Source: a virus (lineage: Duplodnaviria > Caudoviricetes). Taken from it: a stretch of 31,556 bases of DNA. The translations under genes were made by a program, and so were the position numbers. The stretch covers positions 1 through 31,556 of IMG/VR virus record IMGVR_UViG_3300031519_000134, one strand, 5' to 3'. The notes below the pieces were generated by a model. It searched no databases. It had not been told where the DNA came from and saw only the letters and a program-made list of their open reading frames with translations. Of this stretch, positions 4,052 to 31,042 are shown one piece after another (positions within the stretch are counted from its first letter, which is position 1; each line of letters starts with the position of its first letter).

Positions 4052-4268
4052 TATAAGAAAAATCAGCATAGGTTCTGATTATAAAAATGATGCTATGCAT
4101 TATTCTGTAGGCCAACAGGTTTATGGAGGACATGAGATATCACATATTTTATTAAATGAATCTGATGGTTCTTATAACATTCACATTAAAAAAAACAACG
4201 AGGTAATGCCATGGAAGAAGTTTAATTCTAACATGGCAATATCCGTTGAATACGATTTAGAGTATTGA
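4041..4268 (+). CDS. hypothetical protein (75 aa)
   Basis: Overlaps both neighbours by a few bases; globular composition. Confidence 0.8.
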   Translation: MTNNIRKISIGSDYKNDAMHYSVGQQVYGGHEISHILLNESDGSYNIHIKKNNEVMPWKKFNSNMAISVEYDLEY

Positions 4269-4873
4269 TGAGAAGCTTGTACGATTTTATTGTTGAGCCA
4301 TTAGGTGAAAAATACAGTAATAAAGTCAAGGTTGGAGATAAAGAGTTAATTATAAATACAAAAATAGAAGATTTTAAATTTGTAAATAGATTAGCTAAAG
4401 TTTTAGAAACACCCAAGGCATTTAATACGGGTATTGAAATAGGTGATATAATTGTTATACACCAAAACGTGTTTAGAGTATTCTATGACATGAAAGGAAT
4501 TAAAAAGAAAAGTAGATCTTGGTTTAAAGATGACTTACATTTTTGTGCTATAGATCAAATCTATTTATATAAAAATAAAGAAGGTTGGCATTCATTTGGT
4601 GACCGCTGCTTTATAACTCCAATAAAAGACAATCAGTCTTTAACGCTAGATAAAGAACAAAGCCTTATTGGTATATTAAAATACGGCAATAGTTCCTTAA
4701 AAGCACTCGGTATTAATCCCGGTGACCTTGTAGGTTATACACCTAATGGTGAGTGGGAATTTTTAATTGATGGCAAGCGTTTATATTGTATGAAATCTAA
4801 TGATATTGTAATTAAATATGAATACCAAGGAAACGAAGTTGAATATAATCCAAGCTGGGCAAGTAGCAGTTGA
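4265..4873 (+). CDS. co-chaperonin GroES-like protein, apparently two tandem domains (likely start ATG 4268)
   Basis: Two GroES-like units: LYDFIVEP..AKVLETP..IEIGDIIVI and FGDRCFITP..GILKY..INPGDLVGY..LYCMKSNDI. Confidence 0.55.
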   Translation: MMRSLYDFIVEPLGEKYSNKVKVGDKELIINTKIEDFKFVNRLAKVLETPKAFNTGIEIGDIIVIHQNVFRVFYDMKGIKKKSRSWFKDDLHFCAIDQIYLYKNKEGWHSFGDRCFITPIKDNQSLTLDKEQSLIGILKYGNSSLKALGINPGDLVGYTPNGEWEFLIDGKRLYCMKSNDIVIKYEYQGNEVEYNPSWASSS

Positions 4874-5093: not shown

Positions 5094-7306
5094 TGTACGA
5101 GCAAACTTTATATGAAGTCTTAAAAGACTACGTTAAACCTAAAGTTCTTAATAGAATGAATAGGTATAAGAAATGGGAATATGGTTACAATGCTGAGCAT
5201 GATTTAATAGTTATTAGTAAAACAGGTGAAATAGGTGAGATATATAAGATACAAAACCTTGTAATTGCTTTACCTAAAGAGAAAGATGTTGTAGAGTTTA
5301 AAGACGACAAATGGTCTTACACACAATATCCTAAAGAATTAAGTGTAATCAAATCCGTATTTGATTGGGAAGAATACCCTTTGGATTTTAAAGAAAAATG
5401 GTATGACTACATCGATAAAGAATTTACAAGACGTGAAGAAGGTTTTTGGTTTGTTAACAAAGGTAAGTCTACTTATATTACTGGTACTAACTACATGTAC
5501 TTGCAGTGGAGTAAGATTGACGTCGGGCAACCGGACTTTCGTGAATCAAACAGATTATTCTACATATTTTGGGAAGCTTGTAAATCCGATGTTAGATCCT
5601 ATGGAATGTGTTACCTTAAGAACAGGCGATCCGGTTTTTCGTTTATGGCAAGTGGGGAAACCGTTAACCAAGCAACGATATCTACAGATGCTAGATTTGG
5701 TATACTCTCTAAATCTGGACCCGACGCAAAGAAGATGTTTACTGACAAAGTTGTCCCGATATCGGTCAATTACCCTTTCTTTTTCAAACCAATACAGGAC
5801 GGTATGGACAGGCCAAAGACAGAGCTTGCGTACAGAGTCCCAGCCTCCAAGTTTACCAGAAGAAAACTTGATTCAAATGAAAAATTACAGGAAATTACCG
5901 GTCTTGACACGACCATCGATTGGAAAAACACCGGCGACAACTCCTATGACGGGGAGAAGCTTAAACTTCTCGTCCACGATGAATCGGGGAAATGGGAAAG
6001 GCCGACGAACATCCTCAACAACTGGCGAGTAACAAGAACTTGTTTACGATTAGGTTCTAGAATTATAGGTAAATGCATGATGGGGTCAACCTCAAATGCT
6101 TTAGATAAAGGAGGCGGTAACTTTAAAAAACTATACAATGACTCAGACGTTACGCAAAGAAACGCCAATGGACAGACACGCTCAGGACTCTATTCTTTGT
6201 TCATACCTATGGAGTGGAATTACGAAGGATACATTGATTCTTATGGCTTTCCTGTATTCAACACACCCAAGAAAGAAATTGAAGGACCGTTTGGTGAAAA
6301 AATAACACAAGGCGTAATAGAGTATTGGAACAATGAAGTAGAAGGTTTAAAGTCTGATCAAGATGGTTTAAATGAATTTTACAGACAGTTTCCACGCACA
6401 ACTAAGCATGCATTTAGAGATGAATCAAAACAATCTCTATTTAACTTAACAAAAATATACGAGCAAATAGATTTTAACGAAGATCTTAAAAACTCAATTA
6501 AAGTAACAAAAGGAAGTTTTCAATGGGAGAACGGACAGCAAGATACTAAAGTTATATTCATACCAAACAAAGACGGTAGATTTTTAGTTAGCTGGGTTCC
6601 ATCTGAAAACTTACAAAATAAAAGATATATAAAAAATGGCACTAATTATCCTGGTAATGAACATTGCGGAGCATTTGGTTGTGATCCATATGATATATCA
6701 GGAACTGTGGACGGTAGAGGATCCAAGGGCTCTCTTCATGGTTTAACTAAGTTTTCAATGGAGGATGTACCTCCTAACCATTTCTTTTTAGAATATATAG
6801 CTAGACCACAAACAGCTGAGATATTTTTTGAAGATGTTTTAATGGCTTGCGTTTTTTACGGCATGCCAATACTAGCTGAGAACAATAAGCCTAGATTGTT
6901 ATATTATTTTAAACGAAGAAACTATAGAGGGTTTTCAATTAACAGACCTGATAGAAAATACAACAAGTTGTCAGTCACAGAAAGAGAGTTAGGTGGTATA
7001 CCAAATTCAAGTGAAGACATAAAACAAGCACATGCTGCGGCTATAGAAACTTACATAAACGATTTTGTAGGTTTAAAAGAAACAGGTTATGGAGATGTAT
7101 ATTTCCAAAGAACATTAGAAGATTGGGCTACGTTTAATATTAATAATAGAACAAAGCATGATGCATCTATAAGTTCAGGACTTGCTTTAATGGCTTGTAA
7201 TAAACATAGATATGCTCCAAGCAGTCAAAGACCAAAACCTCAACCTATGGATTTAGGTATTAAAAAGTACGATAACAAAGGTTCAACATCAAAAATAATA
7301 AGTTAA
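5093..7306 (+). CDS. terL: terminase large subunit
   Basis: Walker A-like KNRRSGFS, Walker B LLVHDE, coupling motif GSTS, RNase H-like nuclease motifs FGCDPYD and KHD; followed by the portal gene. Confidence 0.9.
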   Translation: MYEQTLYEVLKDYVKPKVLNRMNRYKKWEYGYNAEHDLIVISKTGEIGEIYKIQNLVIALPKEKDVVEFKDDKWSYTQYPKELSVIKSVFDWEEYPLDFKEKWYDYIDKEFTRREEGFWFVNKGKSTYITGTNYMYLQWSKIDVGQPDFRESNRLFYIFWEACKSDVRSYGMCYLKNRRSGFSFMASGETVNQATISTDARFGILSKSGPDAKKMFTDKVVPISVNYPFFFKPIQDGMDRPKTELAYRVPASKFTRRKLDSNEKLQEITGLDTTIDWKNTGDNSYDGEKLKLLVHDESGKWERPTNILNNWRVTRTCLRLGSRIIGKCMMGSTSNALDKGGGNFKKLYNDSDVTQRNANGQTRSGLYSLFIPMEWNYEGYIDSYGFPVFNTPKKEIEGPFGEKITQGVIEYWNNEVEGLKSDQDGLNEFYRQFPRTTKHAFRDESKQSLFNLTKIYEQIDFNEDLKNSIKVTKGSFQWENGQQDTKVIFIPNKDGRFLVSWVPSENLQNKRYIKNGTNYPGNEHCGAFGCDPYDISGTVDGRGSKGSLHGLTKFSMEDVPPNHFFLEYIARPQTAEIFFEDVLMACVFYGMPILAENNKPRLLYYFKRRNYRGFSINRPDRKYNKLSVTERELGGIPNSSEDIKQAHAAAIETYINDFVGLKETGYGDVYFQRTLEDWATFNINNRTKHDASISSGLALMACNKHRYAPSSQRPKPQPMDLGIKKYDNKGSTSKIIS
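5403..6032 (+). CDS. candidate overprinted ORF in the +1 frame of terL (209 aa from ATG 5403; frame open from 5361)
   Basis: 224 codons without an internal stop in AT-rich DNA, with a local shift of terL codons to CTT/ATC/GTC and C/G endings. Confidence 0.4.
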   Translation: MTTSIKNLQDVKKVFGLLTKVSLLILLVLTTCTCSGVRLTSGNRTFVNQTDYSTYFGKLVNPMLDPMECVTLRTGDPVFRLWQVGKPLTKQRYLQMLDLVYSLNLDPTQRRCLLTKLSRYRSITLSFSNQYRTVWTGQRQSLRTESQPPSLPEENLIQMKNYRKLPVLTRPSIGKTPATTPMTGRSLNFSSTMNRGNGKGRRTSSTTGE

Positions 7307-9694
7307 ATGGGTATATATACTAACACCAATAGCGCTTTCCCTAGTCAAGTAGTTAGCGATGCAGAAAAAGCAAGCTGGGAATACGGAACGCAGGTTGGAC
7401 AAGCTATCGAATACGAGTGGTTTGGCCAAGGGCGTACTAATGGTAATAGATACTTAACTAGTTGGAATCAATTTCACCAATTAAGATTATATGCTCGAGG
7501 TGAGCAATCAATACAGAAGTACAAAGATGAATTGTCTATTAATGGTGATTTATCTTATTTAAACTTAGACTGGAAACCAGTACCAATTTTATCTAAGTTT
7601 GTAGATATTGTTGTTAATGGTATATCAGCTAAAGCTTATGATATTAAAGCTTACGCTCAAGATCCTCAGTCAATAAAGAAAAGAACTGATTACGCTTCTA
7701 TGCTTTACGAAGATATGGTATCTAAAGAATACTTGGATAGTCTTCAACAAACGCTAGGTATTAATTTATATCAAACTCCAAACATTGATACAGTACCTGA
7801 ATCTAAAGACGAACTAGAGCTTCACATGCAGTTGAGCTATAAGCAGTCGGTTGAAATAGCAGAGGAAGAAGCTATAGCATCTGTACTTGCGCAAAACAAA
7901 TTTGATCTTACTAGAAGAAGATTAAATATGGATTTAACTGTATTAGGTATGGCAGTGGCTAAAACTAGCTTTAATACTGCAGAGGGAATTACAGTTGATT
8001 ACGTAGATCCTGCTTATGTTGTTTATTCTTACACTGAAGATCCAAACTTTGATGATGTATACTATGTAGGTGAAGTAAAGTCTATAACAATACCTGAGCT
8101 TAAAAAAGAGTTTCCAGACATTGGAGAAGAAGAACTTGAAAGAATACAATCAATGCCAGGCAACAGTCAGTATATAACAGGCTGGGGTAATTATGATGAA
8201 AACACAGTTCAAGTATTATACTTTGATTACAAGACATACCATAACCAAGTATTTAAAATAAAAGAAACACCACAAGGATTAATGAAAGCTTTAGAAAAGC
8301 CTGATTCATTTAATCCACCAGAAAATGATAACTTTGAAAGAGTATCAAGATCTATTGAGGTATTATATAATGGAGCTAAAGTATTAGGTTCTAATGAAAT
8401 GATAAAGTGGGAGCTAGCAGAGAACATGTCTAGACCTACCGCTGATACAACTAAAGTAGAAATGAACTACGCTTTATGTGCGCCTAGAATGTACAAAGGT
8501 CGTATTGAATCTATTGTAAGTAAATGTATTGGCTTTGCTGACATGATTCAGTTAACACATTTAAAACTGCAACAAGTTTTATCTCGTATGGTACCAGACG
8601 GTGTTTACTTAGACATGGACGGGCTTGCGGAAGTTGATTTAGGTAACGGAACTAATTACAATCCAGCGGAGGCATTAAATATGTATTTCCAAACAGGTTC
8701 TATAGTCGGTAGATCCCTTACTCAAGACGGTGATATGAATCCAGGTAAAGTACCTATTCAAGAACTTAACAGTTCATCTGGCCAAGCTAAAATATCTGCT
8801 CTTATACAAACGTATCAATATTATTTACAAATGATACGTGACGTAACCGGGCTTAATGAAGCAAGAGACGGCACGGCTATGGATAAGAACTCGCTTGTAG
8901 GGCTTCAAAAGATGGCCGCTAACGCGTCCAATGTAGCGACTAGACATATTAATCAGTCTAGTCTTTATATCACTCTTAAACTAGCCGAGAACGTTGCGCT
9001 TAAAATAGCTGATGCATTAGAATTTCCACTAACTAGAAGTGCTCTACAAAATTCTATATCTACATTTAACATTAAAACTTTAGACGAGATAGTAAACTTA
9101 AATCTTCATGACTTTGGTATATTCTTAGAATTAGAACCAGATGAAGAAGAGCAAGCTCAGTTAGAAAACAATATACAAGTCGCACTGCAACAAGGGGGTA
9201 TTGATCTTGAAGACGCTATAGATTTAAGAAATATTAAGAATCTTAAGCTAGCAAATCAAATGCTTAAGATAAAACGTAAAGCTAAAGCTAAGCAAGATCA
9301 AGTTAACCAACAAGCTAATATTGCAGCTCAAGGGCAGTCGCAAGCTGATACAGCAGAAAAAACTGCTATGGCTGAAGTTCAAAAACAAGAAGCTATAATG
9401 GGTGCAAATGTTCAGTTTGAACAGTCTAAAAATCAAATGGAAATTCAACGTATGGAAATTGCAGCGCAATTAGAAGCGCAAAAAATGCAAACAAAATTTC
9501 AATACGATATGCAGCTTAAGCAGCTTGATGTTCAAAACACACAGCAAAAAGAAAAAGCTATTGAAGATCGTAAAGATACTCGTAGCAAAATGGAAGCTTC
9601 ACAACAAAGTGAGCTTATAAGTCAAAGGCAAAACGATGGTTTACCTATAGACTTTGAAAATCAACCCGACCAGGGTATGCAGGCTTTCATGTAG
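7307..9694 (+). CDS. portal protein
   Basis: 795 aa directly after terL; helical, with a long Gln-rich coiled-coil C-terminus like the barrel of podovirus portals. Confidence 0.8.
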   Translation: MGIYTNTNSAFPSQVVSDAEKASWEYGTQVGQAIEYEWFGQGRTNGNRYLTSWNQFHQLRLYARGEQSIQKYKDELSINGDLSYLNLDWKPVPILSKFVDIVVNGISAKAYDIKAYAQDPQSIKKRTDYASMLYEDMVSKEYLDSLQQTLGINLYQTPNIDTVPESKDELELHMQLSYKQSVEIAEEEAIASVLAQNKFDLTRRRLNMDLTVLGMAVAKTSFNTAEGITVDYVDPAYVVYSYTEDPNFDDVYYVGEVKSITIPELKKEFPDIGEEELERIQSMPGNSQYITGWGNYDENTVQVLYFDYKTYHNQVFKIKETPQGLMKALEKPDSFNPPENDNFERVSRSIEVLYNGAKVLGSNEMIKWELAENMSRPTADTTKVEMNYALCAPRMYKGRIESIVSKCIGFADMIQLTHLKLQQVLSRMVPDGVYLDMDGLAEVDLGNGTNYNPAEALNMYFQTGSIVGRSLTQDGDMNPGKVPIQELNSSSGQAKISALIQTYQYYLQMIRDVTGLNEARDGTAMDKNSLVGLQKMAANASNVATRHINQSSLYITLKLAENVALKIADALEFPLTRSALQNSISTFNIKTLDEIVNLNLHDFGIFLELEPDEEEQAQLENNIQVALQQGGIDLEDAIDLRNIKNLKLANQMLKIKRKAKAKQDQVNQQANIAAQGQSQADTAEKTAMAEVQKQEAIMGANVQFEQSKNQMEIQRMEIAAQLEAQKMQTKFQYDMQLKQLDVQNTQQKEKAIEDRKDTRSKMEASQQSELISQRQNDGLPIDFENQPDQGMQAFM

Positions 9695-9706
9695 AAAGTA
9701 AACAAT

Positions 9707-9728
9707 TATTTAATTATATTATATTATG
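9707..9728 (+). promoter_or_regulatory. shared leader motif TATTTAATTWTATTATATTATG, copy 1
   Basis: Matches 12482-12503 at 21 of 22 nt; both copies end at a start codon. Confidence 0.5.
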
Positions 9729-10916
9729 TCAGAAGTAAAAACAAATGAACCTGTTAAGCAGGAAGGCGAGTTTAAAATTAAAAAGAAAACTCCTAAAAAA
9801 TTAACAACACCTAGTGACGAACCGGTAAAAGTAAATATCAAAGAACCTTTGGTTGAGCTTCCACCAGAAGTTACAAAAGTGGTAATACCAAAAGAAGATG
9901 CCATTCAAGTCGGAGAAACAAAGGAAGTATCTGTGGAAGAACCATCCGGAGATAGCGCAGAGGTGGGAGAACCTGTACAAGAGTCCAACGAAACTCCTGA
10001 AGGGTTTTCTGCAATCAAAGAAGTAACTGAAAAAGAAGTTAAAGAAGTTGAAGCTCAAGTAGAAAAAGCAGTACAAGATGAAAGAATTCTTGGTAAAGCT
10101 TTGCCTGAAAACATTGAAAAACTAGTTTCATTTATGGAAGAAACAGGTGGGACAATAGAGGACTATACTAGGCTTAACGCTGACTACTCTAAAGTAGATG
10201 ATGTTACATTATTAAAAGAATACTATAAAAAAGAAAAACCTTATTTAGAAGGTGAAGACATTGATATGTTACTAGAAGACTTTATCATTGATGAAGATAT
10301 CGACGAAGATAGAGATGCACGCAAAAAAAGAATTGCGTTTAAAGAAGAAGTTGCAAAAGCCAAAAACTATTTGGAAGAGACGAAGAGTAAGTATTATGAC
10401 GAGATCAAGTTGAGACCGGGCACTACTCAAGACCAACAAAAAGCTATGGACTTTTTTAACCGATATAATAAGCAGCAAGAAACAGCTGAGCAACAACATG
10501 CACAATTCAAGGAAAGTACTAAAGAGCTTTTCAACGACAATTTCGAAGGTTTCGATATTAAAGTCGGCGAAAAAAGTTATAAGTACAATATTCAGAATCG
10601 TGATAAAGTTGCAGAGAGCCAATCGAATATTAACAACCTTGTCGGGAAGTTCCTAGACTCAGATGGTAATGTTAAAGACACGAAAGGTTATCACAAAGCT
10701 ATGTACGCTGCTGACAATGTAGATAAGATCGCAGCTCATTTCTATGAGCAAGGAAAAGCGGATGCCGTAAAAGAAGTTGTAAACAGTTCAAAAAACTTAA
10801 GTAATACCAAAGCTAGGTCTACTCAAGGTGATGTGTTTGTAAACGGACTTAAGGTTAAAGCAATAAGCGGTTTAGACTCTTCAAAACTAAGAATTAAAAC
10901 AAAAAAATTTAACTAA
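9726..10916 (+). CDS. putative capsid scaffolding protein
   Basis: Very acidic, low-complexity N-terminus and helical C-terminus; lies between portal and major capsid genes. Confidence 0.65.
   Translation: MSEVKTNEPVKQEGEFKIKKKTPKKLTTPSDEPVKVNIKEPLVELPPEVTKVVIPKEDAIQVGETKEVSVEEPSGDSAEVGEPVQESNETPEGFSAIKEVTEKEVKEVEAQVEKAVQDERILGKALPENIEKLVSFMEETGGTIEDYTRLNADYSKVDDVTLLKEYYKKEKPYLEGEDIDMLLEDFIIDEDIDEDRDARKKRIAFKEEVAKAKNYLEETKSKYYDEIKLRPGTTQDQQKAMDFFNRYNKQQETAEQQHAQFKESTKELFNDNFEGFDIKVGEKSYKYNIQNRDKVAESQSNINNLVGKFLDSDGNVKDTKGYHKAMYAADNVDKIAAHFYEQGKADAVKEVVNSSKNLSNTKARSTQGDVFVNGLKVKAISGLDSSKLRIKTKKFN
9898..10026 (+). CDS. nested 42-aa basic protein (MPFKSEKQR type) in the +1 frame of the scaffold gene
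   Basis: Translates as MPFKSEKQRKYLWKNHPEIAQRWENLYKSPTKLLKGFLQSKK*. A at -3 of the ATG, local GC rise, and resemblance to a recurrent small phage protein pattern (PFKSxKQRxY.W...PEIA.RW). Confidence 0.7.
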   Translation: MPFKSEKQRKYLWKNHPEIAQRWENLYKSPTKLLKGFLQSKK

Positions 10917-10930
10917 AAAAACAAAAAATT

Positions 10931-12415
10931 ATGGCTTTAAGTCCTCAATTTGGTAGTTTAATTCCTTCTGGAACTCAGGAAGTATTAAATAGTAACTACC
11001 TACAATTTAACGGTGGCGCTGCTGCTGGACCAGGCGCTGGTGGTGATTCATTCGCTCAGCAGTATTTACCTGAAATTTATGAACAAGAAGTAGAGCGTTA
11101 CGGAAACCGTACAATCTCTGGATTCTTAAGAATGGTTGGCGCTGAAATGCCAATGACTTCAGATCAAGTAATTTGGTCAGAACAAAACAGACTACACATT
11201 AGCTACGCTGGCGTATCTGTTGTTAACGCTGCTGGATCAACTAGCACTGTTACATTATTTGCAGCTGGTACAGCCGGTTTACAAAATGTAATATCAATCA
11301 ACGATACTATTGTTTTCTTAAACCCTACAACTGGGGCTGAGAGTAAAGCAATTGTAACTGATTCTGGTGCATACACTGGATCTGCTCTTGCTGCTACTGA
11401 TATTGTTGTACAACCTTTTGACAATAATCAAATTGCCGGTATTGGTGCTGGAGCAGCTGCTGCTACAGGCGCTAAGGTATTTGTATACGGTTCTCAATAT
11501 ACAAAAGGACAAAGTACTGATGGAGCTTTTTTAGTTGGCGGACAAAACCAAGGAAGAATCTCAATTGATCCTCAGTTAACTCAATATTCTAATTCGCCAA
11601 TTATATTAAGAAGCCAATACGTAGTTAATGGTTCTGACATGGCTCAAATTGGATGGGTTGAAGTTGCAACTGAAGATGGAACATCTGGGTACTTATGGTA
11701 TTTAAAAGCTGAATCTGAAACTCGTTTACGTTTTGAAGATTACTTAGAAATGTCTATGGTTGAAGCTGAATATGATCAAGTAGGTGGTGTTACATCTCCA
11801 GGATCTGAAGGTTTATTTGCTGCCATCCAATCTCGTGGAAACGTAGAAGTAGGATTTACTGCTGCTGCTGGACTTGACGAATTTGATGCTATTCTTAAAA
11901 ATTTAGATACTCAAGGAGCAATTGAAGAAAACATGTTATTCTTACAGAGACAAACATCTCTTGATTTTGACGATATGTTAGCTTCTATTTCTGGCGGATT
12001 TGCTGGAGGTACTGCTTTTGGATTATTTGAAAATTCTGAAGAAATGGCTTTAAACTTAGGATTTAGCGGATTTCGTAGAGGATCTTACGATTTCTATAAA
12101 ACTGACTGGAAATACTTAAATGACGCTTCTACTCGTGGCGCTGTTACAGGTATTAGCTCAATCGAAGGTGTATTAATACCAGCTGGAACTTCTACAGTTT
12201 ACGATCAGATCTTAGGAACTAATATCCGACGACCATTTTTACACGTGCGTTACAGAGCTTCACAATCTGATGACAGACGTATGAAGTCTTGGTTAACTGG
12301 TTCTGCTGGTGGTGCATTTACTTCAACTCTTGATGCTATGGAAGTAAACTTCCTATCTGAAAGATGTTTAGTAACTCAAGCTGCTAACAACTTTGTATTA
12401 TTCAAAGGAATCTAA
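10931..12415 (+). CDS. major capsid protein
   Basis: 494 aa after the scaffold gene, with strongly biased codons (GCT/GGT/CGT) and a downstream terminator. Contains an Ala/Gly-rich beta insertion. Confidence 0.8.
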   Translation: MALSPQFGSLIPSGTQEVLNSNYLQFNGGAAAGPGAGGDSFAQQYLPEIYEQEVERYGNRTISGFLRMVGAEMPMTSDQVIWSEQNRLHISYAGVSVVNAAGSTSTVTLFAAGTAGLQNVISINDTIVFLNPTTGAESKAIVTDSGAYTGSALAATDIVVQPFDNNQIAGIGAGAAAATGAKVFVYGSQYTKGQSTDGAFLVGGQNQGRISIDPQLTQYSNSPIILRSQYVVNGSDMAQIGWVEVATEDGTSGYLWYLKAESETRLRFEDYLEMSMVEAEYDQVGGVTSPGSEGLFAAIQSRGNVEVGFTAAAGLDEFDAILKNLDTQGAIEENMLFLQRQTSLDFDDMLASISGGFAGGTAFGLFENSEEMALNLGFSGFRRGSYDFYKTDWKYLNDASTRGAVTGISSIEGVLIPAGTSTVYDQILGTNIRRPFLHVRYRASQSDDRRMKSWLTGSAGGAFTSTLDAMEVNFLSERCLVTQAANNFVLFKGI

Positions 12416-12476: not shown

Positions 12477-12481
12477 ATAAC

Positions 12482-12503
12482 TATTTAATTTTATTATATT
12501 ATG
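12482..12503 (+). promoter_or_regulatory. shared leader motif TATTTAATTWTATTATATTATG, copy 2
   Basis: Near-identical to 9707-9728. Confidence 0.5.
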
Positions 12504-23476: not shown

Positions 23477-26400
23477 ATGAACGAATTACAAGCATACGTA
23501 GATTCACTGCCTTCAATGTTACTTGAAGAGGAAAAAAAGAAACTTGTTAAGCAGTGGAAAATAGATAATAAATGGGGCGAAGAAAAGCCTGAGCCAGTAG
23601 GAACTGGTACTGTTCTTAAATCTGAAGACATAACATACGGAGGAGAAGCAGTGAAAGAGGTTATTGAGGCGGTAAAGACGGAGGGCGATGCAGCGGGTGC
23701 AGGTGTGGAGCCAGTAAAAACAGAAGCACTGGTAGATCTTACGGATTCAGCATCGGAAGATGGTTCATCGGAATTAAAAGAATCTAAAGAAAAAAATATA
23801 TATTCAAGATTTGACACGGATGAAGAGCTTGACAAAAAAAGAGAAATAGCTACCATGTCTTTTGGTGATAAGCTTTTAGTTGATATAAAAAAAGGTAGCA
23901 CGACTCTTGGTGAAATGATAGCTTCTGTTCCCGAAACATTATATGACATTTTTGCTTTACCCCAAAACATTTTAGCTAAAGCAACAGGTTTAAATATAGA
24001 AGCTAGTTCTAAAAAATTCAAAGAAGACAATAGTCTTGGGAATCCAGTATTAGAGTTCTACGAAGCTGAAAGCACTAAACTTGGAGAAACACAAGATATT
24101 TACAATAATGCCAATTATGATTATCAAGGTATTTATAATAATTTTTCAAAAGGAAATTACGCAGATGGATTTAAGCAATTAGCTAGTGGTATAGTAGAAA
24201 GTGCTCCAGTGAGTATGTCTATGATGGTTGGAGGCGCTGCTGTTAGTACGGGAAAACTAGCAGCTGGTAGTACAGTAGCTTTTGCTGGTCCTGAAATAAA
24301 AGAACAACGCGAAAAAAATCCTGGACAATCAGAAGCCGAAAGTATAATAAAAGGATTAGGGCTAGCGGGTGCTGAAAGCGTTTTTAGCTCTATAGGTACC
24401 GGAACAATTGGTAAAGTATATAAAGATATACTTTTAAAAGAAGGAAAAGAAGAAGGTGTTAAAATTTTTAGACAAGGTCTTATTGACATGTATAGATCAG
24501 CACTAACTAAATACGGAGCCCCAGCTTCTATGCTAGGTGAAGGTCTTGAGGAAGTTGCTACTACAATAACGCAAAACATGATAAATGGCGTGCCGGCGTT
24601 TAATAACGTAGCGGATTCTTTTATACAAGGTGTTGGTGGAGGTGTAGTCTATGGAGCGCCAGTTAATGCTGCTCAAGCAAAAAGAGCTATTAAATCAGGC
24701 ATAACTAATTCTAAAATAAATAGCGAGTTAGGTAATTCAAATTATAACAATATTACTGATGCTTTTAACGTTGAAACAAGTACGTCATCTACGGAAATAA
24801 ATATATCTCAAATAGCTGGATCTCAACAAGCTATTGACGCTAAAGTTGATAAGCAGTTAGAAGCTGGTGAAATAACTGTAGATCAAGCTAATAGTGTTAA
24901 GTTAAGAGCTAGAGAAGTTCAAGGATCTGTAAATAGATTAAAACCTTTAAGTATTAGTATAGAAAATCAACCAGCTTTGGTTGACTTAATGATTGAGCAA
25001 AAGAATTTAAAAAATACTATAAAACAAGTAGATAATTCTAGTTTAACAAAAGCAGAGTCTGAAAGATTAACTGAAATAGACAAAGAGTTAAGTGACATAG
25101 TTGTAGCCGACAGAACAGCTAAAGTAGAAAAAGGAGCCAAGGTTATAGCTGAACAAGTTGGAACTGGTTTTGAAACTTTTGATAACGAAGCTGACATGGC
25201 TTCTGCTATAGAAACTTTAAAAGAACAAGGCGGTAAGGTTGATACTAAAAACTCTCAAGACTACGGTAGCTTTGTTGTTATGCCTGACGGTAAAAGAATT
25301 GTAATTTTAAACAAAGAATCTGCAGCTGAAGACAATGTAATGGACACGGCTGGTCACGAGGTTGGTCATGCTGTTTTATTTGAAACTGTAAAAAATAAAC
25401 CCGAAGCTGCAATAGCTTTAGGTACTTCTCTTTTAGAAGAACTAAAGAATAGTAAAGATATTACATTCACAAACTCTAGGTTTTTAGATAGATTTAATCA
25501 GTACGTTGAAGATATAGATATATCTAAAGCAGATACTATGGAAGAGGTTTTAACTCTTGCTAGTGAAGGTTTAAGTAATGGTGATATAGTTTTTAATGAA
25601 AAAGCTTCTACTAAAATAGGTGATTTTATACGTAGAGCTTTAAGCGCTATGGGTTTAAATGTTAAGTTTAAAACTGGAAAAGATGTATTAAACTTTGTTA
25701 GAGACTACAATAGAAGCGTGCAAAAAGGTAAAGGTCTCTCTAAAGGTCTTGAAAAAGCAGCTACAAAAGGAGCTGAAGTAGATATAAAAATTCCAACAGA
25801 TATAGAAGCTGAAGTTGCAGATGTTGTAACTAAGGAAAGTAAAAAAGATACAGGCGTTGAAGCGTCTGCTAAAGTGCAAGAAATATACGACACGCAAGGT
25901 GAAGATGGAGCTTTGGATATTATAGAACAATTTAAGCCTATAGTAAAAAGAATAGTAGAAAAAAGAAGTGAAGCACCTAATTTTGATCGTCAACTTTTAA
26001 CAGACGAAATTGAAACAGGTAAGCGTGGAATATTTGATTTAATAAAAGAATATAAGCCAGAGTCAGGTGTGCCACTAGCTGCTTATATAAATAAGTTTTT
26101 ACCAGCTAGAGCTATTGAAGCTTCTCAAAGAGTTTTAGGTGAAGAATTTACTAGCGACGTTACAGAAGCTAGAAACGTGATGGCTGAAGAGGTCGAAACT
26201 GAGGTTGCTGCAAAGCCTACTACTAGAAAAATAAAACCTAGCTCACTTATATCTAACGATGCAGCAAGTAAGATTAAAGAACAAGTACAAGATAAGATTA
26301 AAGGCATCGATACTAAAAACTTAACGTTTAAAAAACTAGGTGACTTAGCTCCTGAAATTATTGCAGCTGAAATTGGAATACCAGTTAAAAAACTAACTAG

Positions 26401-29400
26401 TCCAACAGCTAACTTATCTAAAGGCGATGCGACTGCTATTCAGCAATTTGTCAATAAGAACGCAGATAAGTTATTAAAGATATTACCAGAAGGTGCAGTT
26501 GTAGAAGCTGCAACAGACAAGCTCTTAGGCACATCTACTGGCGTGCCAAAAGGTTTGCTTAATGCTTTTTACACTAAACAAGCTAGATTAGGTAAAGGAG
26601 CTGGACTTGCTCCGTTTAAATTAAACAAAGGAATTAGTAAAGCTGATTTCTTAGAAACTTTTGGTATTGTCGAAGGTAAGAAAGCTGAAGGTTTTGACGC
26701 TAGGTCACCACAAGCTCAAGCTTTAAAAGGTATTGCTAGTTTATACGGAAAGCTTGTAACAAACGAAATTGTAAGATCAGATACTGATTTAAGTTTAGAA
26801 GCTAAGCAAGATGTTGCTGCTGGTAAGAGTAAATCTATGGCTAGCAAAAGAGACGCTGGATCTCAATATAACGTAGATTCAAATGTTGTTAACGCAGGTT
26901 ATAAACCTATAAAACCTGGAGTTGAAGGTGTTAATGATTTAAGTAATTTTCTTATTGATGATTTAACTAAAGTTTTTGGAAAAAACGCTAGCTTATTTGC
27001 GGTTGCATCAAACTTAGCGGGCGCTGGGAATTCTTACATAGGCAGCAAACCAACTAGTGGAGCTAAAGGTAGAAAATTTTTGTTTATAAGTGATGCTAAT
27101 AAGACTAAAAGATATATAAAAGAAACCAAAGAAGCTTTAGAATCTGGACAATTAGGAGATTTAAAAGTAATAAACAATACTATAAGTGCTTTAGAAGGTT
27201 TAGATGCTATATCAGAATCAGATTTAAAAGCTATAAAGCAAGCTATATCTAGCCAAACCATAAAAAACATAGAAGGTAATCTTAAAAATAAATCACTACA
27301 CAACAAAGGCGTTAGACTTATTATAGAAAAGTTTGCTGAATTATATAAATTAGATCCTAAAAACATTAGAGGTATAGCCTCTATAATATATAATCAAAAC
27401 GCTAACTATAGTTTTGGTAGAAAAATGGCAGCTGTTCTTGGTTTAGAACAGGGTGTAGAACCTGGTTCTAAATCTTGGGAAGAACATGTTTATCAATTTG
27501 GTAATTTTGCCAATAGAACACTTGAAGCTATATCTAGCGATAACCCAAAAGTTTTAGATGGCTGGGTTAAATGGGTTAATGATAATTATTACCAAGAAGT
27601 TACAGGTAAAGAAACTCAAGCTATAGTAGATGCTACTTATTTTAAAGATGGTATTACGTGGAAAGCTAAGTCTGAAGAGCATCCGTATCTTAATGAAAAA
27701 CTAAACGAAGCTTTTAAGACCGGCGATTTCAGTGAAGTACCTCCTGCAGATATAAGAAAATACAATGAATACTTTGCGTTAAATCCAAACAACAGATCTA
27801 TAGATAATGTTTCAGACGCTGCTAAATACAATGTAGAAGTTGACGCTAAGTTTAGAGATAATTTAGATGTTCAAGCGGAACAACAGAGATTAATATACGA
27901 GCAGTTCATAGGTGAAACTACAGCTGAAAAAGCTAAGCAAGACATTAAAGCATATACAGAGTTAGCAACAGGAAAAGCAATGGCTTCTAAGCGTGATAGC
28001 AATTTAATTCCTGACGCTATAAAGTATAGCGAACCTATAACTGTGCAAAAAGCTATAAACGCTTTAGAAAAAACTGACAAAGCTTTAAATAACGCTAGGA
28101 AATTAGATCAACCTGTTAAGAAAATTAGAGTGTTTGACTTCGATGACACATTGGCAAAATCAAAAAGCATGGTTATCGTTAATATGCCTGATGGTTCTAA
28201 CACTCAAATAAACGCTACGCAGTTTGCTCAACAAGCGTCTGATCTTGAATCACAAGGCGCTGAGTTTGATTTTACTGAATTTAGTAAAGTAGTAAAAGGA
28301 AAAAAAGGACCTTTGTTTAGTGTAGCTCAAAAAATAGCAGATGCTCGTGGTACTGAAGATGTGTTTATACTTACAGCAAGACCACAAGCTGCCGCAGGAC
28401 CTATAAAAGCCTTTATGGAAGCTAATGGTATTAATATACCTTTAAAAAATATAACCGGCTTAGGTGACGGTACAGCTGAAGCAAAAGCAGGTTGGATAAT
28501 GGGTAAAGCAGCTGATGGCTATAATGATTTTTACTTTGCAGATGATGCTATTAAAAACGTTAAAGCCGTTGAAGATGTACTTAGCCAAATAGATGTTAAG
28601 TCAAAAGTTCAACTAGCTAAAGCTAGTAAAAGACAAACCTTTGATACTATCGTAAATGATATGATTGAAGACTCTTCTGGCATAGCTACATATAAAGAAT
28701 ATTCTGCAGCTAGAGCTAAAACAATTGGCGCTAACAAAGGCAAATTTAATTTCTTTATTCCACCATCTGCAGAGGATTTTACAGGGTTATTATATAAAAT
28801 GATAGGTAAAGGTAAAAAAGGAGATTCTCAAATGGCTTTTCTTAAGACAAACTTACTTGACACTTACGATAGAGCAGAGTCTGCTGTAACACAAGCTAAG
28901 ATAGCCGCAGCAAATGATTTTAAAGCTTTAAAATCAGAGTTAAAAACGCTACCTACAAGTTTAAGTGTACCTACCGGTATTGGAGGTTTTACTTATTCTC
29001 ACGCAGTTCGCGTAGCTATATGGTCAGCTCAAGGTATGGATATACCAGGGCTGTCTAAAAGAGATATTAAAGAATTAAATGACTTTATACAAAACGATAC
29101 TGAGCTTAGAGTTTTTGCTAACGAGTTAATTAAAATACAAAAAGGTAAACCTTACCCAAAGCCAGGTCAAAACTGGTTAGGTGGTAACATCACTAGCGAT
29201 ATTATCAATGATATTAACAAAGTTAATAGAGCAGAGTATCAACAAGAGTTTAGAGAGAATGTGGATATAATATTCTCAGAAGATAACATGAATAAAATGG
29301 AGGCTGCGTACGGAAGCAGATGGCGTGAAGCCTTGGAAGATTCTTTACGTAGAATGAAATCAGGTAGTAACAGACCTCCTGGGGGCAATAGAGTTACAGA

Positions 29401-31042
29401 TCAACTATTAGACTGGTTAAACAACTCTGTTGGTGCTGTTATGTTCTTAAACACACGTTCTGCGCTATTACAGACTATATCCGCGGTAAACTTCATAAAT
29501 TGGGGTGACAATAATATAGTGAAAGCAGGTTTAGCGTTTGCAAATCAAAAACAATTTTGGTCTGACTTTATGACGCTTATGAACTCTGATTACTTAGTTG
29601 AAAGAAGAGAAGGTCTTAAGATAAATGTAAGTGAATCTGAAATAGCAGACGCTGTTAGAGATTCTAAGAATAAACCTAAAGCAGCTATAGCTTTTTTACT
29701 TAGCAAAGGTTTTGTTATGACAAGGTTTGCAGATAGTTTTGCTATTGCAACTGGTGGCTCTACTTTTTATAGAAATAGAGTCAAAGCTTTAGTAGGTAAA
29801 GGTATGGAACAAAAAGCTGCAGAAGCGCAAGCGTTTGAAGACTTTAGACAAATAGCAGAAGAAAGTCAGCAGTCAAGTAATCCAAATAGAATTAGTCAAC
29901 AACAGGCATCAGCTGCTGGTCGTGTTGTTTTAGCTTGGGCAAATACGCCTATGCAATATGCTCGTATACAAAAAAGAGCTGGTCAAGATCTTATAAATGG
30001 TCGTGGTGATTGGAAAACAAATGTATCTAAGATAGTTTACTACGGTGCTATTCAGAATTTAATATTTAATTCACTACAACAAGCGGTGTTTGCTTTAGGG
30101 TTTGGTGAGGATGATGAAGATGATGATGCTAAGAAAAACGAAAAAATATCTAGAGTAGCAAATGGTATGATTGATTCTCAGCTTAAAGGATTAGGTATAG
30201 GTGGCGCAGCAGTGGTTGCACTTAAAAATACTTTAATGACCTTAGGTGAGGAACATGCTAAAAACCGAGCTGAATATGAAAAAGCTGTAGCTGATTTACT
30301 AGGCTTTTCACCGCCTCTTGGATCTAAAGTACAAAAAATAAAAGGTGGTCTTAGAAGTTTTAGCTGGAATATGAAAGATATTAAAGAACAAGGTTTTAGC
30401 TTAGACAATCCAGCTTATTTAGCAGGTGCTCAAATAGTAACTGGTCTTACCAATATACCTCTTGATAGAGTAGCTAAGAAAATAAATAACGTACGTGGTA
30501 TGATTAACGAACAGTCAGCGCTTTGGCAAAGAGTTGCTTTAGGTCTTGGTTGGTCTACCTGGGATGTAGGTCTTGGTTATTACGGAGGGTTTGACGCGGC
30601 AAAAGTTTTAACGCCTGAAGAAGAAAAAGTCAAAGAAATTGACGATATGAAGAAGTTAACTAAAACTAAAGAACAAGTTGATATGCTTCTTGATTTAGGA
30701 TTAACTAAAAAAGAAATAAAAGCTTTAGGTAAAGAACAAGCTAGAGTTGAAAAAATAATTGAATTACAAAATGCTGAGTCTAAGCCTAAAGAAGAGGCTA
30801 AGGTTAAGGAAGAAATAAAAGAAGAAACTAAGCCAACGCCAAAAGTAGAAGCAAAGCCTAAAACCGAAAGCGCTGAGAGAAGACTTAGAAGACAGTTTGA
30901 TTCTATTAAAGATGAAAACAAACCTGATCAAGTAAAAACATTACTTAAATTTGGACTGTCTAAAAAAGAAATAAGAGATTTACAATACGAAAAAAACAGA
31001 GTAGAAAAAATATTAGAATTAATGAATAAAAATAAAAAATGA
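23477..31042 (+). CDS. giant multidomain (polyvalent) internal virion protein: zincin + sigma70-r2-like + HAD phosphatase + helical C-terminus (2521 aa)
   Basis: HEVGH at 25355-25369; sigma-like segment at 25910-26135; HAD motifs DFDDT (28136-28150), ILTAR, K and FADD. Confidence 0.75.
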   Translation: MNELQAYVDSLPSMLLEEEKKKLVKQWKIDNKWGEEKPEPVGTGTVLKSEDITYGGEAVKEVIEAVKTEGDAAGAGVEPVKTEALVDLTDSASEDGSSELKESKEKNIYSRFDTDEELDKKREIATMSFGDKLLVDIKKGSTTLGEMIASVPETLYDIFALPQNILAKATGLNIEASSKKFKEDNSLGNPVLEFYEAESTKLGETQDIYNNANYDYQGIYNNFSKGNYADGFKQLASGIVESAPVSMSMMVGGAAVSTGKLAAGSTVAFAGPEIKEQREKNPGQSEAESIIKGLGLAGAESVFSSIGTGTIGKVYKDILLKEGKEEGVKIFRQGLIDMYRSALTKYGAPASMLGEGLEEVATTITQNMINGVPAFNNVADSFIQGVGGGVVYGAPVNAAQAKRAIKSGITNSKINSELGNSNYNNITDAFNVETSTSSTEINISQIAGSQQAIDAKVDKQLEAGEITVDQANSVKLRAREVQGSVNRLKPLSISIENQPALVDLMIEQKNLKNTIKQVDNSSLTKAESERLTEIDKELSDIVVADRTAKVEKGAKVIAEQVGTGFETFDNEADMASAIETLKEQGGKVDTKNSQDYGSFVVMPDGKRIVILNKESAAEDNVMDTAGHEVGHAVLFETVKNKPEAAIALGTSLLEELKNSKDITFTNSRFLDRFNQYVEDIDISKADTMEEVLTLASEGLSNGDIVFNEKASTKIGDFIRRALSAMGLNVKFKTGKDVLNFVRDYNRSVQKGKGLSKGLEKAATKGAEVDIKIPTDIEAEVADVVTKESKKDTGVEASAKVQEIYDTQGEDGALDIIEQFKPIVKRIVEKRSEAPNFDRQLLTDEIETGKRGIFDLIKEYKPESGVPLAAYINKFLPARAIEASQRVLGEEFTSDVTEARNVMAEEVETEVAAKPTTRKIKPSSLISNDAASKIKEQVQDKIKGIDTKNLTFKKLGDLAPEIIAAEIGIPVKKLTSPTANLSKGDATAIQQFVNKNADKLLKILPEGAVVEAATDKLLGTSTGVPKGLLNAFYTKQARLGKGAGLAPFKLNKGISKADFLETFGIVEGKKAEGFDARSPQAQALKGIASLYGKLVTNEIVRSDTDLSLEAKQDVAAGKSKSMASKRDAGSQYNVDSNVVNAGYKPIKPGVEGVNDLSNFLIDDLTKVFGKNASLFAVASNLAGAGNSYIGSKPTSGAKGRKFLFISDANKTKRYIKETKEALESGQLGDLKVINNTISALEGLDAISESDLKAIKQAISSQTIKNIEGNLKNKSLHNKGVRLIIEKFAELYKLDPKNIRGIASIIYNQNANYSFGRKMAAVLGLEQGVEPGSKSWEEHVYQFGNFANRTLEAISSDNPKVLDGWVKWVNDNYYQEVTGKETQAIVDATYFKDGITWKAKSEEHPYLNEKLNEAFKTGDFSEVPPADIRKYNEYFALNPNNRSIDNVSDAAKYNVEVDAKFRDNLDVQAEQQRLIYEQFIGETTAEKAKQDIKAYTELATGKAMASKRDSNLIPDAIKYSEPITVQKAINALEKTDKALNNARKLDQPVKKIRVFDFDDTLAKSKSMVIVNMPDGSNTQINATQFAQQASDLESQGAEFDFTEFSKVVKGKKGPLFSVAQKIADARGTEDVFILTARPQAAAGPIKAFMEANGINIPLKNITGLGDGTAEAKAGWIMGKAADGYNDFYFADDAIKNVKAVEDVLSQIDVKSKVQLAKASKRQTFDTIVNDMIEDSSGIATYKEYSAARAKTIGANKGKFNFFIPPSAEDFTGLLYKMIGKGKKGDSQMAFLKTNLLDTYDRAESAVTQAKIAAANDFKALKSELKTLPTSLSVPTGIGGFTYSHAVRVAIWSAQGMDIPGLSKRDIKELNDFIQNDTELRVFANELIKIQKGKPYPKPGQNWLGGNITSDIINDINKVNRAEYQQEFRENVDIIFSEDNMNKMEAAYGSRWREALEDSLRRMKSGSNRPPGGNRVTDQLLDWLNNSVGAVMFLNTRSALLQTISAVNFINWGDNNIVKAGLAFANQKQFWSDFMTLMNSDYLVERREGLKINVSESEIADAVRDSKNKPKAAIAFLLSKGFVMTRFADSFAIATGGSTFYRNRVKALVGKGMEQKAAEAQAFEDFRQIAEESQQSSNPNRISQQQASAAGRVVLAWANTPMQYARIQKRAGQDLINGRGDWKTNVSKIVYYGAIQNLIFNSLQQAVFALGFGEDDEDDDAKKNEKISRVANGMIDSQLKGLGIGGAAVVALKNTLMTLGEEHAKNRAEYEKAVADLLGFSPPLGSKVQKIKGGLRSFSWNMKDIKEQGFSLDNPAYLAGAQIVTGLTNIPLDRVAKKINNVRGMINEQSALWQRVALGLGWSTWDVGLGYYGGFDAAKVLTPEEEKVKEIDDMKKLTKTKEQVDMLLDLGLTKKEIKALGKEQARVEKIIELQNAESKPKEEAKVKEEIKEETKPTPKVEAKPKTESAERRLRRQFDSIKDENKPDQVKTLLKFGLSKKEIRDLQYEKNRVEKILELMNKNKK
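30647..31027 (+). repeat. two copies of a ~35-42 aa protein repeat at the C-terminus of the giant protein
   Basis: EQVDMLLDLGLTKKEIKALGKEQARVEKIIELQN versus DQVKTLLKFGLSKKEIRDLQYEKNRVEKILELMN. Confidence 0.8.

Follow-up and report, generated by a model that had tools for sequence, protein, structure and literature searches.

A probable gene of a widespread phage mini-protein family, nested in +1 within a putative scaffold gene of an Elemovirus-related phage

The DNA analysed here (the window) is a 31.6-kb fragment of a marine, Elemovirus-related Bacteroidota phage, in which GroES, terminase and portal genes are followed by ORF 9726-10916 (hereafter the host gene) and a capsid-like gene. Cultured Flavobacterium Elemovirus has the same gene order (GroES, terminase, portal, gp27, capsid). 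The features referred to below are as follows.

4265-4873: phage gene for a GroES-like co-chaperonin, preceding the terminase gene
5403-6032, + strand: second candidate for a nested gene (209 aa), in +1 relative to the gene for the terminase large subunit
7307..9694, + strand: portal gene (phrog_6547, E 5e-140)
9726..10916, + strand: host gene, putative scaffold (396 aa), homologue of the Elemovirus gp27 'structural protein'
9726..9896, + strand: host codons 1-57, which precede the nested gene and are conserved in frame 0
9884..9897, + strand: putative A-rich initiation region of the nested ATG, of the Bacteroidota type
9897..10025, + strand: dual-coding segment, host codons 58-100, acidic and predicted to be disordered in frame 0
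9898..10026, + strand: probable nested gene for a 42-aa member of the MPFKS family, in +1 relative to ORF 9726-10916
10002..10008, + strand: +1-frame heptamer G GGT TTT, at which a -1 slip could lead into the host frame; it is not kept in all peptide types
10931..12415, + strand: virion structural gene (phrog_13704, E 3.5e-85)
23477..31042, + strand: giant ORF (2,521 aa), without a nested copy

The product of 10931..12415 is read as the major capsid protein from its position and size. A near-invariant AT-rich stretch (9696-9725) lies directly before the host gene start in 120 relatives, and a 20-mer very similar to it is present at 12481-12500, before ORF 12501; the two are candidates for a late promoter or start signal. 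Matches to a sigma-70-like promoter, a consensus that is not the Bacteroidota one, occur at about shuffle level (4 vs 2.0 +/- 1.4), and a terminator search found none. Upstream of the holin gene, 125-2457 contains small ORFs (51-177 aa) that are mostly unassigned and in some cases repeat-like, and a family search gave no match for most of them.

The host protein is 35.5% identical to Elemovirus gp27 over residues 123-380. It is encoded between the portal and capsid genes, is acidic, and is predicted to have long helices and a disordered N-terminus; its position, acidity and predicted helices make it a putative capsid scaffolding protein. Comparison with PHROG, Pfam and PDB sequences and a fold search gave no significant match, the best Z of 5.7 being within the range of common helical arrangements. 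A first-pass annotation made from the sequence alone had described the scaffold N-terminus as disordered, and residues 1-121 are indeed predicted at pLDDT < 50. Codons 1-57 carry host-silent changes at 45/69 sites and +1-silent changes at 18/65, and the start context of the gene is conserved among relatives. The host frame is open through the peptide in 75/76 loci in which the peptide was found, the exception being truncated by the contig end. Because codons 1-57 are conserved in frame 0, the host gene is likely read through the overlap, and its frame is open and conserved as a coding frame there.

Within this gene the first-pass annotation had recognized a complete 42-aa ORF, and translation of the +1 frame from ATG 9898 to TAA 10026 gives a peptide identical to the one quoted. 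The ATG lies 172 nt (57 codons + 1) into the host gene, and host codons 58-100 are covered. The composition of both products is as described, with 12 D/E and 2 K/R in the acidic host segment 58-100 and 11 K/R and 3 D/E in the basic peptide; across 181 nested copies the peptide charge is +7 to +19. The reported local GC anomaly is also present (0.50 in 9900-9999, compared with 0.23-0.43 in the other 100-nt windows of 9000-10999), although this peak is local and not unique, as the start of the capsid gene reaches 0.45-0.47. GC is raised in the dual-coding segment because +1 codons ending in T before AA, AG or GA stop the host frame. The Phe3 codon is TTC in 172/181 nested copies and TTT in 40/50 free copies, and T before AA/AG/GA is seen in 0/1,366 cases in nested copies; both figures are in part a consequence of the definitions of nested and free copies and are used only to explain the GC rise. 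In an AlphaFold model (pLDDT 77) the peptide is predicted to form a helix (6-15), a Pro kink, a second helix (17-27) and a looser basic tail.

An open frame of this length can occur by chance alone. Five alternative-frame ATG ORFs of at least 42 aa are present in the window's 30,558 coding nt, and in 20,000 trials of synonymous recoding the nested frame stays open in 7.2%, or in 4.9% if the ATG is included. The length of the open frame is therefore insufficient, and it is conservation that sets the nested gene beyond chance. Another +1 ORF in the same host gene (10498-10656) is not conserved, being open in 10/120 relatives.

Purifying selection acts on the +1 protein. In 120 aligned relatives, codons 59-87 have alleles that are silent in the +1 frame and change the host protein at 22/39 possible sites, alleles that are silent in the host and change the +1 protein at 9/58, and +1 stops at 0/19. 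The C-terminal core of the host gene has the reverse pattern in the same relatives (+1-silent at 65/408 vs host-silent at 302/405), and host-silent +1 stops are seen there at 17/22. Codon-position entropy (first/third) is 0.53/0.31 inside the nested gene, 0.58/0.96 upstream of it and 0.38/0.91 in the core. The proposal that the scaffold N-terminus hosts a real nested gene is supported by this selection on the +1 frame and by both of the checks suggested with it, which were a search for free-standing homologues (described below) and persistence of the ATG and frame in related scaffold genes. In a scaffold-only search the ATG and frame are kept in 76/76 scaffold ORFs recovered from 80 loci, the portal having been taken instead of the scaffold ORF in the other four. 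From these comparisons the nested ORF is almost certainly a real, translated gene. Three metatranscriptome contigs from two studies (X15, X16, X17) cover the region; contigs of this kind cannot show transcription or frame.

The context of the nested ATG points to independent initiation. The A at -3 noted in the first pass is present, and A is also found at -6, -11 and -13. In Flavobacterium, adenines at -3, -6, -12 and -13 are positive determinants of initiation and adenine is enriched at -14 to -11, according to the passages on start context in Baez et al. (PMC6847099). Scaffold-nested ATGs have A at -3 in 172/181 copies, at -6 in 160/181 and at -11 in 166/181, this last being a host third codon position with a background A of 0.53. 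For ATGs nested in very long ORFs (see below) the corresponding counts are 18/18 at -11 and 14/18 at -3. Scored with a matrix derived from the window's own starts, the nested ATG ranks among the best 14 of 382 out-of-frame ATGs, itself counted, but is weaker than the median of the true starts.

The nested gene is present in 181/255 unique complete host ORFs, a set partly gathered by peptide search, and its presence follows host identity: 77/77 at 80% or more, 37/38 at 70-80%, 67/79 at 50-70% and 0/61 below 50%. At least six divergent peptide types, including Cys-pair forms, occupy the scaffold slot, most with indels that keep both frames, and a single type is found at separate places in the host tree. 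This is a quick version of the tree (31/75 inner branches weak, midpoint root) in which the patchiness of the peptide types is visible and the order of events is not. Three pairs of loci (L373/L367, L371/L368 and L065/L073) have near-identical flanks with different middles. The 12/79 scaffolds at 50-70% identity without the nested gene include one with an in-frame fusion (L375) and one (L364) whose N-terminal region has a decayed copy, with the start lost, internal stops and a recognisable tail. The gene is lost or swapped in some close relatives, and it is dispensable in some lineages. A single further locus (L135:4780-5300) has a short host N-terminus in frame with the peptide and the core in another frame, possibly an assembly error.

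A second candidate nested ORF is present in the terminase gene (5403-6032). Among 34 relatives this stretch has 0 stops in 22, 2-4 in 4 and 7-15 in 8, and the rest of the terminase gene has ~30 stops per 424 codons in the same comparison. The recoding null gives a mean of 10 stops, with 0/3,000 trials stop-free; GC3 is ~0.5 in open alleles and ~0.2 elsewhere, and the ATG is kept in 15/15 open alleles and 5/13 closed ones. The sequence drifts, with 46/209 columns conserved. The product has a hydrophobic stretch and a Cys near its start and an S/T/R/P-rich tail, and a membrane protein or lipoprotein would be our guess. A family search with it gave no match, and the best Atlas match (0.76) is a lead only.

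The first-pass annotation had named the peptide as a recurrent stand-alone phage protein, and the homologue search bears this out, with copies in five isolate phages and at 44 distinct IMG/VR loci. Searching with the peptide gave 82 short proteins at E<=10, and a profile search gave 3,366 clusters (50% identity) at E<=1e-3; the MPFKS family is a very large, unnamed phage mini-protein family. It is free-standing in Streptomyces phage FlowerPower, 023Pt_psg01, P-RSP2, C75C1 and S-CBS2, where the -1 frame is closed within 3-5 codons, and of these five copies only those of FlowerPower and 023Pt_psg01 are annotated. The N-terminal core is near-invariant among members from phages that infect Streptomyces, Prochlorococcus, Synechococcus and Flavobacterium, and the identity between phages of different host phyla is 60-70%. 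All 44 free-standing loci were collected with a single pelagiphage-type query, so that one phage group is over-represented in the count that places 39 of them no more than 4 kb from a portal, terminase, GroES, phrog_28737 or capsid gene. GroES is directly downstream of many free-standing members; one free-standing copy (L174) adjoins a DNA polymerase gene, and the Streptomyces phage copy sits among lysis genes. Matches in cellular genomes comprise 19 loci, mostly on MAG contigs and some of them weak partial matches only, and their organism labels were not taken as hosts. One family member (L414:3342-3490) has a -1 frame open for 109 codons without scaffold similarity, a possible further small overlap.

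Where not nested, family members are free-standing, mostly close to head genes, or form the N-terminus of proteins hundreds of residues long. The module starts at residue 1-3 in 142 of the best 150 matches, and in proteins of at least 100 aa it is N-terminal in 63/64 and then followed by a GG motif in 52/63; a lysozyme and a DUF2213 protein are among the proteins to which it is fused. The window peptide has no match in PHROGs, Pfam or NCBIfam. PHROG 1375, which is function-less, weakly matches 31/51 short family members (best E 4.7e-5) and does not match the window peptide. A PDB sequence search with two family profiles returned only noise or repeat-summed designed beta-propellers, a fold search of the peptide model gave no match at E<=1e-3, with family members as the top BFVD rows, and an ESM Atlas search with the peptide gave hypothetical clusters only. 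In a literature search over the main texts of accessible papers, we found none on the MPFKS family and nothing on a nested gene in Elemovirus.

New here is the presence of the same family nested in a very long ORF where the scaffold lacks the nested gene. Among 15 records of distant relatives with such scaffolds, 12 carry the family elsewhere (13 matches) and 3 have no match to it, and 13/13 of the matches lie in the +1 frame of an ORF that is open to both edges of the fetched locus. Five further long-ORF hosts came from other searches (L398, L403, L424, L425 and L453). The long host ORF of L425 is homologous to the giant ORF of the window (38% over 457 aa) and, in part, to gp18; long hosts other than this one and gp18 were not individually identified. 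In the cultured phage elemoE 6-9C (Elemovirus, Flavobacterium phage elemo; NC_055854.1) a copy of the family is present at 52512-52637, in the +1 frame of the gene for gp18, a 'structural protein' of 3,694 aa, and this stretch carries no annotation of its own. Elemovirus thus shares with the window its gene order, the host homologue and the +1-nested peptide family, but nests the family in gp18 and not in gp27, in which no nested copy was found. In all, 68 cultured Elemovirus records match the family, which they have in gp18 without annotation, and their host is Flavobacterium sp. BAL314.

Four of the 18 long-ORF-nested peptides, two of them clearly, are closer to a scaffold-nested peptide than to any long-ORF-nested one. 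These scores suggest more than one move of the MPFKS gene between host genes. Five intermediate records without a scaffold copy (14-78% complete) were also searched, and 0/5 carry a nested gene elsewhere. One 99.6-kb record (G011; L484, L487) has two different nested copies and may be two genomes joined. The C-terminal part of the L403 host ORF has phrog_14770/616 matches and a weak match to a DarB-like antirestriction family, which is in keeping with an injected protein.

Out-of-frame nested phage genes are of an already known kind, as with lambda Rz1 nested in Rz and T7 19.2/19.3 nested in the terminase gene, and the D protein of phiX174 is an external scaffold. These genes, and phiX174 E within D, an overlap described in PMC8227390, resemble the arrangement reported here in being complete same-strand +1 ORFs that have their own starts, lie within morphogenesis genes and are missed by gene callers. 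In the overprinting model, as set out in that source, a nested frame is a novelty of narrow distribution for which remote homologues are usually lacking. Here, in contrast, the nested frame is widespread, with free-standing members in unrelated phages, the host-frame stretch is a local derivative, and one family is present in two host genes. Under the Keese and Gibbs criterion (as presented in PMC8227390), the free-standing homologues in unrelated phages speak against a de novo overprinted gene. The distribution criterion in the same passages takes the wider-spread frame as the ancestral one, and since the wider-spread frame is here the nested one, the peptide gene would be old and absorbed. 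Absorption is very probably the correct account, in preference to birth in place.

The best explanation of the whole, and one that we regard as somewhat probable, is a +1 nested gene with its own AUG on the late mRNA, which encodes a head-packed basic protein and descends from an old gene that was absorbed. Ribosomes on the late structural mRNA would start at the nested AUG alongside synthesis of the host protein, and the product would be a 5-kDa basic two-helix protein, packed inside the head and binding nucleic acid or an acidic surface. The old free-standing gene would have been absorbed into the host gene as an acidic linker, with the Lys/Arg-rich +1 peptide reading in frame 0 as a Glu/Val/Thr-rich disordered linker. 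Such an overlap would be cheap because Lys/Arg +1 codons read as Glu, Val and Thr within the predicted disordered linker. Once open in both frames, the stretch could then be swapped, lost or moved between virion genes.

The chances that the nested product has a head-packed role seem to us evenly balanced; the case for it comes from gene context, charge and the use of the module at N-termini. Both host genes (the scaffold-like gene and gp18) are virion-module genes. In T7, the genes for gp6.7 and gp7.3 adjoin the portal gene. These are small podovirus structural proteins, and gp6.7 is a core protein in the head (PMC11784390). They are encoded by separate genes, and no sequence or fold match between them and the MPFKS family was seen; the analogy is functional only, not one of homology. 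Conservation across phyla and dispensability in some lineages count against the head-packed role, and the 60-70% identity kept between phages that infect different phyla could reflect a conserved target in the host as readily as DNA.

The gene could be real and its product act late in infection on some conserved part of the host machinery, such as the ribosome, a chaperonin or a protease, possibly in the manner of ArfA, instead of forming part of the virion. ArfA binds stalled ribosomes and recruits RF2, and it is short and basic, as is the MPFKS peptide. A small, basic product with a near-invariant N-terminal core in phages of diverse hosts would fit such a role, as would the frequent position of the gene just upstream of a phage GroES gene. 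The peptide is unlike ArfA, however, in its predicted helix-kink-helix core and invariant N-terminal M-P-F. The ArfA model (PF03889) was unmatched by 40 family members at E<=1, and no ArfA chain is among the PDB matches of the two family profiles at E<=10, the sensitivity of both searches being limited by the short sequences. Moreover, a module that heads long proteins and is followed by GG in 52/63 would suit a loading or processing signal better than a peptide of the ribosome channel. We consider action on a host machine unlikely.

Less probable again is that the nested AUG mainly yields a fusion, through a -1 slip near the end of the ORF that would give an MPFKS-tagged scaffold core or giant-protein C-terminus. 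G GGT TTT/C is present in the +1 frame of 99/120 MPFxSEKQ-type copies, and natural N-terminal fusions of the module occur elsewhere; but an X XXY YYZ heptamer is found in only 111/181 scaffold-nested and 0/18 long-ORF-nested copies, and the G GGT TTT at 10002..10008 is probably incidental. There is no stable downstream structure (z -0.40), although not all phage frameshift sites need one. The F-x-P-I-K-E motif of the host protein persists even in copies in which the peptide stops sooner. Four records have the module in frame with the scaffold core (L375, P0001, P0003 and P0302), but these are singletons in which the frame switches at differing points, as sequencing errors would. In the single contig L375 (2643-2875) the host frame stops within the nested region and the peptide continues in frame into the scaffold core, and this form is either a natural fusion or a sequencing error.

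It is slightly less probable still that the peptide is an N-terminal capsid-loading signal, relevant only when fused, with the short forms as by-products or as a control of stoichiometry through translational coupling. The module is at the extreme N-terminus of 63/64 long proteins, and some of its partners carry repeated motifs, detected by eye, that may be prohead-protease sites; the short forms, however, are very common and are themselves under strong purifying selection. Finally, the idea that there is no second protein, the conserved stretch being an RNA or DNA signal, or the scaffold starting downstream with the small gene as an ordinary upstream gene, is very improbable and already largely refuted: a frame can be open by chance, and for some scaffolds in the databases a later start was chosen (P0137, P0211), but variation concentrates on +1-synonymous sites, the slot holds at least six divergent peptide types with most indels keeping both frames, host codons 1-57 are conserved in frame 0 behind a conserved start context of their own, and nesting in the middle of ORFs of 2,500-3,700 aa cannot be a start-call error.

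A broader form of our preferred account, which we put forward tentatively and at a little below even, is that the MPFKS gene is a mobile dual-coding cassette. It would be a universal phage head-loading or genome-binding module whose DNA, shifted by one base, encodes an innocuous acidic linker, so that it could be inserted into, exchanged within or transferred among the essential virion genes (scaffold, giant internal protein) and leave them intact. The whole Elemovirus-like lineage would then have a hidden near-core gene missing from its annotations, with overlap arising by repeated capture instead of overprinting.

The usual account of viral gene overlap would here be reversed, with the hidden frame old and widespread and the annotated frame its passenger. 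At least two host genes harbour the same nested family, near-identical neighbours differ by its exchange or loss, and a very large unnamed phage mini-protein family of 3,366 clusters is brought to light. The unannotated gp18 copy is in a cultured Elemovirus with a known host, so that direct testing is possible. Synonymous recoding of structural genes such as these would destroy the nested gene unnoticed.
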